DNA of 64,000 nt, taken from assembly GCA_963797115.1 (NCBI GenBank), contig CAWCOH010000002.1:643168-707167 (forward strand). Direction: 5' to 3'. The notes beneath the pieces were generated by a model. It had not been told where the DNA came from and searched no databases. It saw nothing but the letters and a program-made list of their open reading frames with translations. Positions 50,973-57,113 of the stretch are shown piece after piece (the first letter of the stretch is position 1; the number at the start of each line of letters is the position of its first letter). The position numbers and the translations under genes are program-made. The stretch is from an uncultured Alphaproteobacteria bacterium (lineage in GTDB: Bacteria > Pseudomonadota > Alphaproteobacteria > ATCC43930 > CGMCC-115725).

Positions 50973-51328
50973 GCGGCTACCCCTCGCGCCACCTGAAAAT
51001 ACAGGTGGGATTCAGGCTCGACCCAACCCAGAGTTCACTGGTCTGCATCATAATCCAGACCCGGAAGCGCCAAACCATCCGCAATCGCGTGCATCACGTC
51101 TCACGTCATCCCATTGAGTAAAAATCGGCAGAAATACCGAGCAGCCCTCCCAGCTGTGGAGCGGAATTCGCAACGTAGCATATCATTATGGTATTGTCAA
51201 CAAGGTGACCCTGACCTACGGCGAGTTGGCCATCGCAGCAGGAACTTGCGCACAGCCCTTGCGCGCCTCCGGACGTCTGCTATATTCTATCGTTCGATGG
51301 ATTGATCAAATCACTTGGTTCGGCATCA

Positions 51329-51700
51329 ATGCACGGCGGGCATCAGTCGCGTCCTCCGGTTCGCCTTCCGCCGCGGGCACAGATCGAGGCCGCCGCCGAG
51401 ATGTTCCGCGCGCTCGGCGATCCCGAACGGCTCCAGCTTCTGGTGCGGCTCGGCGCGGGCGAAGCTTGCGTGTCGGAGCTGGCCGAGGACGAGGGCGAGA
51501 AGATCACAACCGTATCCGCCCGCCTGAAGACGTTGTTCACGGCGCGGCTGGTCATACGGCGGCGTGAGGCGAAGCACGTCTTCTACGCCCTCGCCGACGA
51601 GCATTTGCCGCCAATGCTGAGCAACGCCATCGACCACGCGGCTGAGGGCCGCACCGCAGTGTCCGCGGGTCCCGGACATAGAAAGGATATTACCCCATGA
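51329..51700 (+). CDS. ArsR/SmtB-family metalloregulator
   Basis: AAAEMFRALGDPERLQLLVRLGAGEACVSELAEDEGEKITTVSARLKTLFTARLVIRRREAKHVFYAL is the ArsR wHTH with a CVSEL metal or HTH element. The start is set at ATG 51329. Its stop overlaps the next start (ATGA). Confidence 0.9.
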   Translation: MHGGHQSRPPVRLPPRAQIEAAAEMFRALGDPERLQLLVRLGAGEACVSELAEDEGEKITTVSARLKTLFTARLVIRRREAKHVFYALADEHLPPMLSNAIDHAAEGRTAVSAGPGHRKDITP

Positions 51701-52050
51701 CGACCTGCTCCGAGCCGACCCATCCCGACCATGCCCACCAGCACGGACCGAGTTGTGGCCACCCTGCCGTCCGCCACAGCGGCCACGTTGATTATTTGCA
51801 TGACGGTCACCTCCACCATCCGCACGAAGGCCATGTCGATGAGCACGTGATCGAGGTCTCCGGCGAGAACCCCGACATGTGCACGTCCGACCATCGTTGC
51901 GGCGGGCACGATGCGGGCCATGTCCACGGGCCCGGCTGCGGACATGAAGCGGTGCCGCACGGTGATCACACCGACTACCATGTCAGCGGCCACCTTCATC
52001 ATCCGCATGGCGGCCACTGCGACGACCATGGCCCATTGACGGCCGCCTGA
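51697..52050 (+). CDS. His/Cys-rich putative metal-binding protein with an internal duplication
   Basis: 117 aa, roughly a quarter His. Two copies of HGP(S/G)CGH.AV.H..H.DY...GHLHHPH.GH.D(E/D)H. Translationally coupled to the ArsR gene. Confidence 0.75.
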   Translation: MTTCSEPTHPDHAHQHGPSCGHPAVRHSGHVDYLHDGHLHHPHEGHVDEHVIEVSGENPDMCTSDHRCGGHDAGHVHGPGCGHEAVPHGDHTDYHVSGHLHHPHGGHCDDHGPLTAA

Positions 52051-52179
52051 GGTCGGGGAGCGCTCACGGGGGGCGCCGCCGCGCGAGGCCATTGTCATCC
52101 CCCATGTCCAGGATGGCGGACAGGCGTGCTGTAGCCCTGATCCCGGCTATTCGAGGCTGTAAGGACATCCGAAATACTT

Positions 52180-52219
52180 GTCATTCCGGGCTTGGTCCTG
52201 CGGACCATTCCGGAATGAC
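52180..52219. repeat. REP-like palindromic element
   Basis: GTCATTCCGG (52180-52189) and CCGGAATGAC (52210-52219) form 10-bp perfect arms with a 20-nt spacer, in an intergenic position. Confidence 0.7.
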
Positions 52220-52382
52220 CAAGAAGTCAGGCGTTCACCCAGGGCATTTCCTGATTTCGTCTGGTGGACGCTCCTAGCGGTACAAACCTAACATTTGGAA
52301 CCGGAGGCCCCTCCCCAGCTCTCGTCATCCCGGCGCAGGAGGATGTAACCGAATTCCGAAATCTGGCGCTCTCCCTTCATGC

Positions 52383-52459
52383 TCGTCATTCCCGCGAAAG
52401 CGGTAACCCAGGGATTTCAGCCGCTTGCTCCTGGGTCCCCGCTTTCGCGGGGACGACGA
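52383..52459. repeat. REP-like long imperfect palindrome
   Basis: TCGTCATTCCCGCGAAAGCGG...ACCCAGG (left arm) pairs with CCTGGGT...CCGCTTTCGCGGGGACGACGA (right arm). The GTCATTCCCGCGAAAGCGG unit is a widespread proteobacterial REP motif. Confidence 0.7.
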
Positions 52460-52539
52460 ATTTGGCTGTCCGCAGGATTTCCTGACAGCCTCCTTCGCCG
52501 GTGTGACGGATCTGGGTATCATCCGTCAGAATTGCTCCA

Positions 52540-52824
52540 CTAGCGACCCACTATGACCGGGCAACCGCAAACCGGACACGTGGCCGTCAGTGAGTTCGCG
52601 GAGGGGTCTCTCGCGAGCTGCGCCTGCAATTGAGCAACCAAGGCCGCGTGGTCCGAAGGACCGGCACAACGGTTGGCATAGGCCAAACCAAGCGGGCTCT
52701 TGGGGTCCATCTCCTCGACCTGCCATGCACCGGCGGGTCGTGTAGCTGCCAAGGCGACCACGCCCTCGAGCCATGCCGCGGCATAGCGAAACAGGTCGCG
52801 GCGTCCTCGCAGGAATTCATTCAA
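52540..52824 (-). CDS. small Tat-signal protein with a C-terminal Cys cluster
   Basis: 94 aa. RGRRDLFRYAAAWLEGVVALAAT resembles a twin-arginine signal. There are four Cys (NRCAGP and TATCPVCGCP). The start overlaps the DUF1194 gene stop by 8 nt. Confidence 0.55.
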   Translation of the reverse strand: MNEFLRGRRDLFRYAAAWLEGVVALAATRPAGAWQVEEMDPKSPLGLAYANRCAGPSDHAALVAQLQAQLARDPSANSLTATCPVCGCPVIVGR

Positions 52825-53611
52825 TTTCCGATCCCCTTGGCTCCAGTGTTGTTAAGGTAATTGACCGAGATGTAGCCAGGACATTCGGCCTCCTGGCGGC
52901 GCCGCCGGCGACGTCAATTTCCTTGGCGAGCTTGTTGGCCATCGCGTCGGCAAAGGAATTGAAATCCTTGACGACGATGAGGAAGGCGTTGGGTCCGCCG
53001 ATCACGTTCTGTTTGTAATACAAGGGCAAGCCGCCGGGCGGCTGGGTGTGGGCGGAATAGCCCAGGTTGGGGCGGTCGTTGACGATCGCCAGCCCGTTAA
53101 TCGTAATGCCGCTTGCAACTGCCTGATCGCGCGCATCGGTGACGGGGCGTCCTGAATTGTTCGTCCCGTCGCCGGAGACGTCGATGATGCGCCGGGCGGC
53201 CTGCCACTTGGCTGCGGCGAAGCGCGTCATCGAGAAGTCGATCGCGGCGCCGATCGAAGTTCGCCCCATGAACGAGCGCGGGGCAGCGAGGATGGCCGCG
53301 GCGACGGTGGCCGCACCCTCCTCGTCGCGGATCTCGGTCCAGTCGACCACAACCTGCTGCTCCTCCTCGCCCGACCATTCGACGAAGCACACCCCGAGCA
53401 CTCCCTTCGCCCGGCCTTGGATCGCCGTCAAGACCCGCGGATCGGTCAGCGCCGCGGCGTAGCCTTTGCGCTGCAGATCGAATTCCGGGTCATCGATGCT
53501 GCGCGAAACATCGGCAGCGAGAACGATCTGAAGATCTGCATCGGCGGCCAGCGGCTTGCCGGAATAGGCGAAGCACGCCAGCAGCGCGGCAGCGGCGAGG
53601 GCGGATTTCAT
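52817..53611 (-). CDS. DUF1194 (vWA-fold) exported protein
   Basis: 264 aa with a signal peptide MKSALAAAALLACFAYS. DLQIVLAADVSRSID (MIDAS DxSxS), IDVSGDGTNN, ITINGLAI and NFADAMANKL fit DUF1194. Confidence 0.88.
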   Translation of the reverse strand: MKSALAAAALLACFAYSGKPLAADADLQIVLAADVSRSIDDPEFDLQRKGYAAALTDPRVLTAIQGRAKGVLGVCFVEWSGEEEQQVVVDWTEIRDEEGAATVAAAILAAPRSFMGRTSIGAAIDFSMTRFAAAKWQAARRIIDVSGDGTNNSGRPVTDARDQAVASGITINGLAIVNDRPNLGYSAHTQPPGGLPLYYKQNVIGGPNAFLIVVKDFNSFADAMANKLAKEIDVAGGAARRPNVLATSRSITLTTLEPRGSEIE

Positions 53612-53743
53612 CGGAGTTCCTCCCGTTCAATGATCTCAGAATAGGACAGGGACCGGAAGCGCGAAAGGGGCGAACATCCCAAGGGCTTCCACTTGGTCGG
53701 ATGAGTGCGTAGGAAGACAACCACCAAACACCGGTGGGTATCG

Positions 53744-54379
53744 ATGGCGCATTACCAAAAATCCCTGGCGGCCGCGGTCGTGCTCAACACGGCGATTTCT
53801 GCTGTGGAAGCCGTGAGCGGGTTCGAGTCCGGCAGCGTGAGCCTGATGATGGACGCCGCCCACAACTTGTCCGACGAGATGGCGCTGATTTTCTTGTACC
53901 TCGCTTTCATCCTAGCCCAGGGAGTGTCGCGGAACCTGCTGCGCACCGCCAACCTGTTCAACTCGCTTGGGCTGATCACGATCAGCGGTGTTCTGGTGTG
54001 GCAGGCCGTTGAGCGATTTCTGTATCCCGCTCCCGTCCAGGGGGCGATCCCGATCGTGGTGGGATCTGCCGCAGCCGTAGCGAATTGGGGGGTAGCGCGG
54101 TTGCTGTGGCAGCCGGGGCGGAACAACGCGGCAATCCGCCTGGCCTATATCCACAATATCGGTGACGTGTACGTCTCGCTCGCTCCTGTGCTAGCCGGGT
54201 TCCTGGTGATCTTTACCGAGCGACCGGTCTTCGATCCAATCATCGCAAGCGCTATAGCCCTCTGGATCATCGTCTCAACTGTGCGCGAGGTGTTGGGATC
54301 TCGCGAAGAGCTGATATGGCCCGAGAAAATAGTGTGCGGCCACCCCGGTCACGATCGACCTGGACTTGCCGCGGGGTAG
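53744..54379 (+). CDS. cation diffusion facilitator-family transporter, membrane domain only
   Basis: Starts MAHYQKSL (ATG 53744). TM2 HNLSD and TM5 HNIGD metal-site motifs and six hydrophobic segments are present. The protein ends ~25 aa after TM6, so there is no cytoplasmic C-terminal domain. Confidence 0.82.
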   Translation: MAHYQKSLAAAVVLNTAISAVEAVSGFESGSVSLMMDAAHNLSDEMALIFLYLAFILAQGVSRNLLRTANLFNSLGLITISGVLVWQAVERFLYPAPVQGAIPIVVGSAAAVANWGVARLLWQPGRNNAAIRLAYIHNIGDVYVSLAPVLAGFLVIFTERPVFDPIIASAIALWIIVSTVREVLGSREELIWPEKIVCGHPGHDRPGLAAG

Positions 54380-54561
54380 AGTTGGAAAATGATGCTCGCC
54401 GCAGCGAGCTCTCCTAACTCGATATAACCCACTACCGGAAAGGGCTTTGCTCCGCGGGAAATAGTGTTACACTGTATCGTTGGCCCGACGATGTGACCGG
54501 GGGGGGTTGGACTGACGTGCGTTTGCGTTTTGCGGCGGGGCTTCGAACAGACCAGCTGAAG

Positions 54562-54965: not shown

Positions 54966-57113
54966 ATGACGAACCCGATAAGAGCGGGGGCGCGATGCGT
55001 CTCCGTGATGCCTTCTATTGCTGCTGCCCTTCTGGCTGCCGCCGCGGCCACGGCACAGGAAACTTCGCCCGCCCCCGGCAGCGTCTCGTTCGACCTCGAC
55101 GTCGTCGCCAAGCAGCTCGACATCGCGCGCACCGAGATCCAACCGAGCCTCGGCGCGACGGTCTATCAATTTGGCCGGCAGGCGATCGAAACCCAGCCGC
55201 AGGGCGACAACCAACCCTTCAATCAACTGCTGCTGCAGGCGCCGGGGGTCGCTCAGGATTCGTTCGGTCAGCTGCATATCCGCGGCGACCATGCCAATAT
55301 CCAATTCCGCGTCAATGGCGTTCAGCTGCCGGAGGGGATCAATGTCTTTGGACAGTCGCTGCAGACCCGGCTCGCCAATTCGGTGGCGCTGATCACCGGC
55401 GCGCTGCCGGCGCAATATGGGCTGCGCACCGCGGGCGTCATCGACATCCAGACCAAGACAGGAACGCTCAATCCGGGCGGTTCGCTGACGATGTATGGCG
55501 GGTCGCAGTCGACGATCTACCCGAGTGCGGAATGGGGCGGCCGGGTCGGCCAGATCGATTACTACGCAACCGCCGAATATTTGCAAAATGCGCTAGGAAT
55601 CGAGAACCCAGCACCGACCTTCAACGCGATCCACGACAACTCCCAGCAGCCCAAAGGGTTCGCCTACGTTTCCGGCATCATCGATCCGACCTCGCGACTG
55701 ACCGCCATTCTCGGCGCCTCGCGCGGCCAGTTCCAGGTCCCGCAGGTCGGCGGCCAGACCCCGGCCCTGGGGCTGACCGTCAACGGCATTAGCGACTTTC
55801 CCTCGGGGCTGATCAACGAGAACCAGCGCCAGATCAATAATTTCGGGATTCTCGCCTGGCAGAAGCGGGTCGGCGATTTCGATTTCCAGGTCGCCGGATA
55901 CTCCCGCTACAGCGACGTCTATTTCTCTCCGGGCAACCCGGTCGGCGACCTACTGTTCAACGGCATCGCCCAGACCGCCTACCGCCAGAGCTGGGCGAGC
56001 GGCGTACAGGGCGACGGCGCCTGGCGCGTCAATCCCGAGCACACGGTACGCAGCGGCTTTCTGGTGCAGCGCGAGCGCTCACCGTTCAGCACCACGTCAA
56101 GTGTCCTGCCGGTCGACCAAGACGGCACGCAAACCAGCGACGAGCCGCTCTCGCTCTTCGATTCGGGCAGCAAGACCGGATGGCTCTACAGCTACTACCT
56201 GCAGGACGAATGGAAGATCTTGCCCGGGGTCACTCTCAACTACGGCGCCCGCTACGACCAGTACGCCCAATTCGACAGCGAGCGCCAATTGAGCCCGCGG
56301 GTCAACGTGGTATGGCAACCGACGGATACGACGACATTGACGGCGGGCTATTCGCGTTACTTCGTGCCGCCCCCTTTCGAGCTCATCGCAAATACGACGG
56401 TCGATCGCTTCGCCAACACCACCGGCGCACCGCCCGGCACTCTGAACAGCGTCGCCAAGGCCGAGCGCAGCCACTACTTCGATGTCGGCGTCTCGCAGAT
56501 CATCCTGCCGGGGCTCAAGGCCGGGATCGACGCCTACTACAAGATCGCCAGCAACCTGCTCGATGAAGGGCAGTTCGGTGCCCCGATCGTGTTGACGCCG
56601 TTCAACTACCAGAAGGGGCTGGTCCGCGGTGTCGAGCTGACGCTCAGCTACGACATCGAGAACTGGTCGTTCTACGGCAACTTCGCGGCATCGAAAGCGC
56701 AGGGAAAAAACATCACGTCGGCGCAATTCAACTTTTCGCAGGACGACCTGGATTATATCGCCGGTCACTATATCCATCTGGATCACGACCAGACCTACAC
56801 CTCCTCGGCCGGCATCAAATACACGTGGCCCGTCTGGAGCACCCGGTTTGCGGTCGATTTGATCGCCGGCAGCGGCCTCAGAACCGACAGCACGGTTCCG
56901 AACGGCGCCAGCCTGCCCGGCTATCAGCAGGTCAATCTCAGCATCGTCCAGCAGATCCCCACCGGCTTTATGAAAGGCATGGAGTTTCGCTTCGACATCG
57001 TCAACCTGTTCGACCAGATCTATCAGATCCGTACCGGCGAGGGGCTCGGCGTCTTTGCGTCGCAATTCGGCCCGCGCCGGACTTTTCTCGCCGGACTGAC
57101 GCAGCGCTTCTGA
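54966..57113 (+). CDS. TonB-dependent outer-membrane receptor
   Basis: 715 aa with a signal peptide IAAALLAAAAATAQE and plug motifs (LLLQAPGV, FGQLHIRG, NGVQL). The long beta-barrel ends in the C-terminal GLTQRF. Confidence 0.93.
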   Translation: MTNPIRAGARCVSVMPSIAAALLAAAAATAQETSPAPGSVSFDLDVVAKQLDIARTEIQPSLGATVYQFGRQAIETQPQGDNQPFNQLLLQAPGVAQDSFGQLHIRGDHANIQFRVNGVQLPEGINVFGQSLQTRLANSVALITGALPAQYGLRTAGVIDIQTKTGTLNPGGSLTMYGGSQSTIYPSAEWGGRVGQIDYYATAEYLQNALGIENPAPTFNAIHDNSQQPKGFAYVSGIIDPTSRLTAILGASRGQFQVPQVGGQTPALGLTVNGISDFPSGLINENQRQINNFGILAWQKRVGDFDFQVAGYSRYSDVYFSPGNPVGDLLFNGIAQTAYRQSWASGVQGDGAWRVNPEHTVRSGFLVQRERSPFSTTSSVLPVDQDGTQTSDEPLSLFDSGSKTGWLYSYYLQDEWKILPGVTLNYGARYDQYAQFDSERQLSPRVNVVWQPTDTTTLTAGYSRYFVPPPFELIANTTVDRFANTTGAPPGTLNSVAKAERSHYFDVGVSQIILPGLKAGIDAYYKIASNLLDEGQFGAPIVLTPFNYQKGLVRGVELTLSYDIENWSFYGNFAASKAQGKNITSAQFNFSQDDLDYIAGHYIHLDHDQTYTSSAGIKYTWPVWSTRFAVDLIAGSGLRTDSTVPNGASLPGYQQVNLSIVQQIPTGFMKGMEFRFDIVNLFDQIYQIRTGEGLGVFASQFGPRRTFLAGLTQRF

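Follow-up and report, generated by a model that had tools for sequence, protein, structure and literature searches.

We describe here a pair of overlapping genes in a 64,000-nucleotide stretch of DNA from an uncultured alphaproteobacterium (assembly GCA_963797115.1, contig CAWCOH010000002.1; this whole stretch is referred to as the window). The first gene encodes a repressor of the ArsR/SmtB family and the second a small His- and Cys-rich protein of unnamed family, hereafter called hc. On balance, sequence comparison leads us to favour, with some reserve, a zinc-derepressed operon that would produce a cytosolic multi-site buffer or relay for zinc, i.e., one that would follow the logic of SmtB-SmtA using an unrelated, His-based protein. 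We lean towards this reading because the type of regulator, the conserved coupling of the two genes, the domain fusions of hc and its genomic neighbours all support zinc binding in the cytosol. Sensor, operator and binding protein together fit in 800 bp, where the following features can be distinguished:

51259-51286, + strand: possible sigma-70-type promoter, recognised by eye (TTGCGC at 51259-51264, 16-nt spacer, TATATT at 51281-51286)
51284-51303, no strand assigned: candidate ArsR operator, an imperfect 7-6-7 inverted repeat (ATTCTAT-N6-ATGGATT) that overlaps the putative -10 element
51302-51309, no strand assigned: 8-bp palindrome TTGATCAA, its first 2 nt within the right arm of the 7-6-7 repeat; probably not functional itself
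51329-51700, + strand: ArsR/SmtB-family repressor, 123 residues, with the alpha5 ligand set D90, H92, H103 and E106
51681-51687, + strand: Shine-Dalgarno-like GAAAGGA, 9 nt before the hc start codon and within the 3' end of the ArsR gene
51697-52050, + strand: hc, His/Cys-rich protein of unnamed family, 117 residues, without signal peptide
51727-51846, + strand: N-terminal module of hc (residues 11-50), 25 of 40 positions identical to residues 72-111
51847-51909, + strand: linker of hc (residues 51-71), with N58, P59, C62, H66, C68 and H71 conserved among 202 family members
51910-52029, + strand: C-terminal module of hc (residues 72-111), delimited by the repeat alignment and by column conservation

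The two genes lie on the same strand and meet in the tetranucleotide ATGA, the ATG of hc (51697-51699) being placed over the TGA of the ArsR gene (51698-51700), as a preliminary description of this DNA had read the junction. The GAAAGGA preceding hc is invariant in a DNA alignment of four genomes, decayed copies included. For the regulator, the most likely start is ATG 51329 and not TTG 51302, because this ATG and the codons that follow align with the intact copy in another genome of the genus (G019), the stretch upstream containing a 12-nt indel. An antisense open reading frame at 51583-52098 (171 residues), for which a "family" of 74 loci could be collected, was discarded as a shadow of the conserved hc frame.

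What kind of protein is hc? Its 117 residues comprise 28 His, 6 Cys, 11 Asp and 6 Glu, and its N-terminus is devoid of a hydrophobic stretch. The internal duplication proposed in the preliminary description is borne out beyond chance: the two 40-residue halves align without gaps (E 1e-5), the same repeat is visible in the DNA with a spacing of 183 nt, and the intervening segment CTSDHRCGGHD is found at residues 62-72. The modules follow the pattern H..C-G-H, H-x2-H-x-D-Y, G-H-L-H-H-x-H and H-x-D-x-H-G, which identifies the window protein as a two-module member of its family. Proteins with a single module of this type exist (P0455, P0427, P0423, P0412), as do arrays in which two or three complete copies of hc follow one another; the module thus behaves as a unit. 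Further apparent single modules, "homologues" of 30-36 residues starting with VPHGDH, turned out to be internal GTG miscalls and were set aside.

The earlier impression that hc fits no named family also held: there is no match in Pfam or NCBIfam and no PDB relative by sequence or by profile. The sole Pfam match, DNA_ligase_ZBD (E 0.0046, below cut-off), was dismissed as a chance coincidence of Cys and His, and a single PDB match to pantothenate synthetase (E 0.69) as noise. Family labels in databases are wrong or empty; nothing backs the UniRef name "Threonine dehydratase" given to hc members, including the "putative" clusters of the homologue P0105, and some of the miscalled fragments among P0456-P0493 are labelled "LpxH". 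Our literature searches found no paper on the family. It is nevertheless a large one, with 3758 homologues of near length (E<=1e-3) that fall into 920 clusters at 50% identity. Across 202 members, 33 positions are conserved at 90% or more; His, Cys, Asp or Glu account for 23 of these, and all 33 are present in the window protein. Lowering the level to 75% gives about 27 His, 5 Cys and 7 Asp/Glu. Such a number of ligand-type residues would suffice for several tetrahedral sites, although the number of sites is our inference. The dN/dS ratio (non-synonymous over synonymous substitution rates) of hc against five relatives is 0.036-0.122 in the five of ten pairs that could be used, dS being saturated in the other five, and the conservation of hc therefore reflects constraint and not recent copying. 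By eye, some family members display signal-peptide or lipobox-like N-termini, and several Cys are absent from them.

The regulator belongs to the ArsR/SmtB metalloregulators, as the preliminary description had stated, since it combines a winged helix-turn-helix with an alpha5 metal site. It scores 71.6 bits against the NCBIfam model NF033788 for ArsR/SmtB metalloregulators (cut-off 55) and 21.1 bits against Pfam HTH_5, slightly below the cut-off of 22, and it matches 20 ArsR-family chains in the PDB at E<=1e-3. The closest solved structure is that of SmtB (E 1.9e-16, ungapped over residues 19-107), followed by an unnamed ArsR, CzrA and NmtR (E 4.4e-10 for the latter). In the alignment with SmtB, D90, H92, H103 and E106 (counted from ATG 51329) coincide with the Asp, His, His and Glu of the C-terminal helix of SmtB, and C47 with the Cys of its helix 3. 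The four alpha5 ligands are kept in all 41 stand-alone ArsR proteins linked to hc, and the set is complete in 86 of 95 sensors that are fused to hc. Their spacing in the window regulator is DxHx10Hx2E; DxHx10Hx2(H/E) is given as the alpha5 motif of a canonical Zn(II) sensor in a 2024 review (PMC11672702).

Where might the regulator bind? Its operator is likely to be the 7-6-7 inverted repeat at 51284-51303, a candidate that would provide the inverted-repeat operator at its own promoter that is typical of the ArsR family. The repeat departs from the consensus ATTCCAT-N6-ATGGAAT at 2 of 14 positions and is the sole match to the degenerate operator pattern in the window, where 0.03 are expected by chance. 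When up to two mismatches in 14 positions were allowed (a stricter first pattern caught 5 of 41 loci), sites were found upstream of 17 of 41 ArsR-linked loci, upstream of 0 of 39 hc genes lacking ArsR and in 0 of 41 control regions, with a mean of 0.15 in shuffled sequences. In other phyla the equivalent place is taken by different strong palindromes. Across the whole genome the pattern matches once more, at the perfect palindrome ATTCCATATCGATGGAAT (L083, contig 1, 1500-1517) inside a glgB-like gene; we rejected this as a second operator, for it encodes FHIDG and is probably a coding coincidence. With no second intergenic match in the genome, the repressor probably controls its own operon only. 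A consensus promoter scan called no promoter here at its thresholds, and the promoter picked out by eye is a weak inference; the loci L001 and L003 display a similar TTGCxC / TAyATT arrangement at the equivalent place. The 8-bp palindrome TTGATCAA, to which an operator role had initially been ascribed, is indeed present at 51302-51309 and ends 19 nt before ATG 51329, but the proposed role finds no backing: its single copy in the window compares with 0.73 expected, at least one copy occurs in 48 of 100 shuffles, and neither L001 and L003, the closest relatives, nor G019 conserve its position.

The association of the two genes extends far beyond the window. Among 80 genome loci with hc, which define all neighbourhood counts given here, an ArsR gene with an alpha5 site lies directly upstream and on the same strand in 41, drawn from many phyla (as determined by tblastn; greedy picking of reading frames combined with Pfam under-counted the linkage at 26 of 80). 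In 25 of the 41, the stop codon of ArsR overlaps the start codon of hc or is at most 20 nt away from it; eight show the same 4-nt overlap and three are in-frame fusions. No other neighbour recurs on either side of hc in the 80 loci. Within 3.5 kb, genes for a COG0523 GTPase, a Fur/Zur-like regulator, ZnuA or ZnuB are found at 18 loci (labels checked with Pfam). In Paraburkholderia sprentiae, for instance, hc is flanked on one side by an annotated zinc ABC importer as well as a GTP-binding protein and on the other by DUF2946 and PCu(A)C genes. We also observed that L015 and L037 have a GAAATAGTATATC string in common upstream of hc, and that two ArsR-less loci, L010 (Achromobacter) and L019 (Burkholderia), contain TTGAC, 19 nt and AAAT together with a dyad about 60-100 nt upstream of hc. 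The latter arrangement, recognised by eye, looks like a MerR-type (ZntR/CadR-like) promoter; a motif search detected a MerR-like gene within 3.5 kb at one of the 80 loci (L020) and none at L010 or L019.

Fusions of hc likewise link it to metal homeostasis. Among the 120 longer homologues listed, 95 join ArsR to hc in one chain, six carry hc on an ABC-3 permease of the ZnuB type, two (P0309, P0345) are full-length CDF transporters with hc as a tail, two combine hc with Cpn10, and five are tandem arrays of hc. In the amoebozoan proteins P0193, P0226, P0185, P0192 and P0235, which come from Physarum polycephalum, Nematostelium gracile and unnamed metagenome or transcriptome records, the two-module domain follows 2-4 C2H2 zinc fingers.

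The gene is widespread and at the same time sparse. It occurs once in its own genome and in at least 594 genome stretches among genomes sampled one per species, which belong to Alpha-, Beta- and Gammaproteobacteria, Myxococcota, Planctomycetota, Acidobacteriota, Spirochaetota, Cyanobacteriota, Verrucomicrobiota and Actinomycetota, and their identity to the window protein is 62-85%; homologues across phyla collected more broadly are 65-87% identical to it. Of 24 other genomes of the genus, 3 carry it; none of 16 more distant relatives does, and across the phylum it turned up in 9 of 400 other genomes sampled. Two of the three copies in the genus, L091 (G016) and L092 (G011), reside at the same place as in the window, beside the DUF1194 gene, and in G016 an aminopeptidase-like gene matches too. 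In both, the ArsR gene is absent or reduced to its 3' end and hc is disrupted by frameshifting deletions of 1-2 nt. The third copy, in G019, is intact, retains ArsR and occupies a different genomic place, and at L002, where hc is 85% identical to that of the window, ArsR has been lost and hc is intact. The gene is also plasmid-borne; an ArsR-hc pair is carried, for example, by a conjugative plasmid of Pantoea ananatis. On a tree of hc, which is poorly resolved (5 starred branches of 78) and was used solely to count linkage changes, ArsR linkage changes at least 18 times, compared with a mean of 27.3 in shuffles, none of 500 of which was as low; linkage is thus clustered. In two soil RNA libraries, contigs of relatives about 86-90% identical cover both genes, one contig of 370 nt spanning the junction, yet as support for expression they are weak, because DNA carry-over in RNA libraries is possible. 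The sequencing runs searched matched at most 6% of sampled words per run, and none carries this organism; gaps in coverage are uninformative.

How might the two proteins act together? We envision that, when there is no surplus metal, an ArsR/SmtB dimer would occupy the 7-6-7 repeat and block transcription, given that the repeat overlaps the likely -10 element. A rise in free cytosolic Zn(II) would fill the inter-subunit alpha5 sites, formed by D90 and H92 of one subunit and H103 and E106 of the other, and the loaded repressor would leave the DNA, as established for sensors of the SmtB/CzrA type. Both genes would then be read from a single mRNA, on which the ATGA overlap and the internal Shine-Dalgarno sequence presumably couple the translation of hc to that of ArsR. 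The hc protein, conceivably a compact two-module cytosolic protein, would bind the surplus zinc and would probably pass it to, or take it from, sensors and transporters; once zinc drops, the repressor would rebind. The idea of a metal-inducible cytoplasmic buffer or chaperone, already voiced in the preliminary description, thus appears to be the best reading, because the comparative evidence links hc to metal homeostasis and mostly to that of zinc. The choice among Zn, Ni, Co and Cu that had been left there narrows towards Zn as the more probable metal.

Several observations weigh against a zinc-derepressed operon of this kind. The locus is dispensable, as judged from its decay in two genomes of the genus and from its presence in only 3 of the 24 others. 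At 39 of the 80 loci hc has no ArsR neighbour, so that it does not depend on this regulator. The alpha5 ligand set is found in Ni/Co sensors too, which leaves zinc unproven. Fusions to sensors and transporters fit a relay or regulatory role equally well as a passive sink. Finally, Zur-box-like sites lie near some ArsR-less copies (at -231 in L037, at -272 in L071 and at -721 in L032), where induction would consequently follow zinc shortage and not surplus. Together with the fusions, these sites argue that hc may be more than a metal soak. Alternatively, hc might serve chiefly for docking or relay, as a zinc-binding domain in contact with the ArsR sensor and, in other genomes, with ZnuB or CDF transporters. 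It would then tune the set-point of the sensor or carry zinc between these proteins and the cytosol. The many single-chain ArsR-hc proteins and in-frame fusions, the fusions to permeases and exporters and the position of the domain behind zinc fingers in Physarum and Nematostelium would suit such a role, and tight ATGA coupling would suit a fixed stoichiometry. We nonetheless regard it as rather unlikely for the window, since ArsR keeps a complete alpha5 site both as a stand-alone and as a fused protein and hence needs no outside sensor, and since the ArsR-less loci offer no such partner next door.

Another scenario keeps the derepression and changes the metal: the operon might handle Ni, Co, Cd or Cu, with hc as a His-rich store of the Hpn/HspA type. 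It draws on the His-dominated composition (28 of 117 residues), on the use of alpha5-type sites by Ni/Co sensors such as the PDB match NmtR, on a NicO neighbour at one locus, on the two Cpn10 fusions, which recall the His-rich tail of Helicobacter HspA, and on DUF2946, PCu(A)C and TonB-receptor genes near some copies. The best match of the regulator, however, is the Zn sensor SmtB, whose D/H/H/E ligand set it has; the genes found repeatedly next to hc or fused to it are zinc genes (ZnuA, ZnuB, Zur-like, COG0523, CDF), and hc is strongly conserved and non-repetitive, unlike proteins of the Hpn type. We therefore hold another metal to be improbable. Much the same doubt attaches to the proposal that hc is a zinc reserve or holder in zinc shortage, i.e., part of a Zur response together with ZnuABC and COG0523, with the ArsR link being secondary. 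Zur-box-like sites of the form TGTTAT-N3-ATAACA do occur within 3.5 kb at 11 of the 80 loci, some of them upstream of hc (L037, L071 and L032), ZnuABC and COG0523 genes are among the neighbours, and hc is fused to the C-termini of ZnuB importer permeases. On the other hand, hc follows a derepression-type sensor in the window and at 41 of the 80 loci, in none of the 80 loci does a Zur-like site come closer than 150 nt to the start of hc, and in L005, L020 and L022 the Zur-like box is situated beyond the ArsR operator and faces divergent genes.

A broader and more speculative scheme, which we put forward tentatively and would not be surprised to see fail, is that hc is a so far unrecognised, autonomously folding multi-site zinc domain used as a plug-in relay. 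Such a domain, docked on ArsR or fused to it, might buffer the zinc pool that this sensor reads and thereby adjust the set-point of the cell, act likewise at the ZnuB and CDF gates and render amoebal C2H2 factors responsive to zinc, and it would be common to many bacterial phyla and to Amoebozoa. How bacteria buffer zinc in the cytosol is an open question and, to our knowledge, most of them have no known metallothionein. Here is a large family that spans many phyla, is under strong purifying selection and is repeatedly linked or fused to zinc sensors, importers and exporters. If hc binds several zinc ions, it would represent a new, His-based class of zinc buffers or relays and, at the same time, a compact genetic part, and the ArsR-hc fusions would offer a direct route to studying the communication between buffer and sensor.

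Other metal-related genes that had been reported near the pair were largely recovered: the CDF transporter (PF01545, E 5e-21), DUF1194 (E 8e-69) and the TonB-dependent receptor (PF00593, E 6e-31) stand, while DUF2946 matches only below threshold (E 0.016; 16.4 bits, with the cut-off at 23.7). The transporter can be listed as follows:

53705-54379, + strand: short CDF transporter, 224 residues, with Cation_efflux over residues 22-203 and no ZT_dimer by Pfam

Its usual cytosolic C-terminal domain seems to be missing, as judged from the absent ZT_dimer and the extent of Cation_efflux. Between hc and the transporter, the intergenic region 52100-52530 contains repeat elements of a palindromic type. 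No strong intrinsic terminator is present there; a weak site at 52240-52253 is the only one that resembles a terminator. An open reading frame of 94 residues on the minus strand (52540-52824) shares 8 nt with the end of the DUF1194 gene (52817-53611, minus strand). Its product combines a twin-arginine-like N-terminus (RRDLF) with CPVCGC at the C-terminus and has no match in Pfam or NCBIfam. A near-palindrome, AAATAGTGTTACACTGTAT, is located at 54455-54481, upstream of the DUF2946-like reading frame and of the TonB-dependent receptor (54966-57113). This receptor is 46% identical to one whose neighbours at the Paraburkholderia franconis locus L032 are a Zur-box-like site, a disrupted COG0523 gene and hc.

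How does the pair compare with known systems? The closest parallel is SmtB-SmtA of Synechococcus PCC 7942, together with its relatives AzuR-NmtA and BxmR-BmtA, in which an ArsR/SmtB sensor with an alpha5 site controls a small cytosolic metal-binding protein; the logic in the window would be alike. SmtB is the nearest of the solved structures to the window regulator and has the four alpha5 ligands in common with it. The genes smtA and smtB are divergent, unlike the co-directional and overlapping genes of the window, and the 7-6-7 repeat differs in sequence from the operator of the smt system. The cyanobacterial locus L072, where a divergent ArsR gene lies 267 nt upstream of hc and a long TGAATACTTG...CAAGTATTCA palindrome is placed between the genes, reproduces the smtB-smtA arrangement with hc replacing smtA. 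The proteins themselves are different. SmtA is half as long as hc and its metal cluster is Cys-based. With 28 His and 6 Cys, hc is not built around a Cys-dominated cluster and bears no similarity to bacterial metallothioneins: Metallothio_Pro (PF02069) does not match it at E<=1 and yields nothing above cut-off in the whole genome.

Small cytosolic proteins rich in His and Cys, namely the nickel proteins Hpn and Hpn-like as well as the tail of HspA, are also known from Helicobacter, where they are thought to store or buffer metal, and the two hc-Cpn10 proteins resemble HspA in joining a His-rich part to a chaperonin. Unlike the Hpn type, hc is not of low complexity, for its two 40-residue modules are ordered and conserve Gly, Pro, Tyr and Leu positions, with dN/dS of 0.04-0.12, and its context is zinc, as opposed to nickel. 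The streptococcal histidine-triad (Pht) proteins have, like hc, repeated modules linked to zinc, and their motif HGDHYHY resembles the module core HGDHxDY. Pht proteins are surface proteins, and hc in the window is without a signal peptide. Homology was not found in searches with the Pht repeat model PF04270 (Strep_his_triad): it does not match hc, its best match in the genome lies elsewhere (E 0.28), and it matches none of 10 divergent hc members at E<=10, exported ones included. COG0523 zinc chaperones are encoded next to hc at some loci, yet hc has no GTPase domain. His-rich cytosolic loops and tails are finally a feature of CDF, ZnuB and ZIP transporters, and hc likewise forms the C-terminal tail of CDF proteins and ABC-3 permeases. 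Unlike those transporter tails, however, it is a separate conserved domain and mostly a free protein, as its 3758 near-length homologues illustrate.

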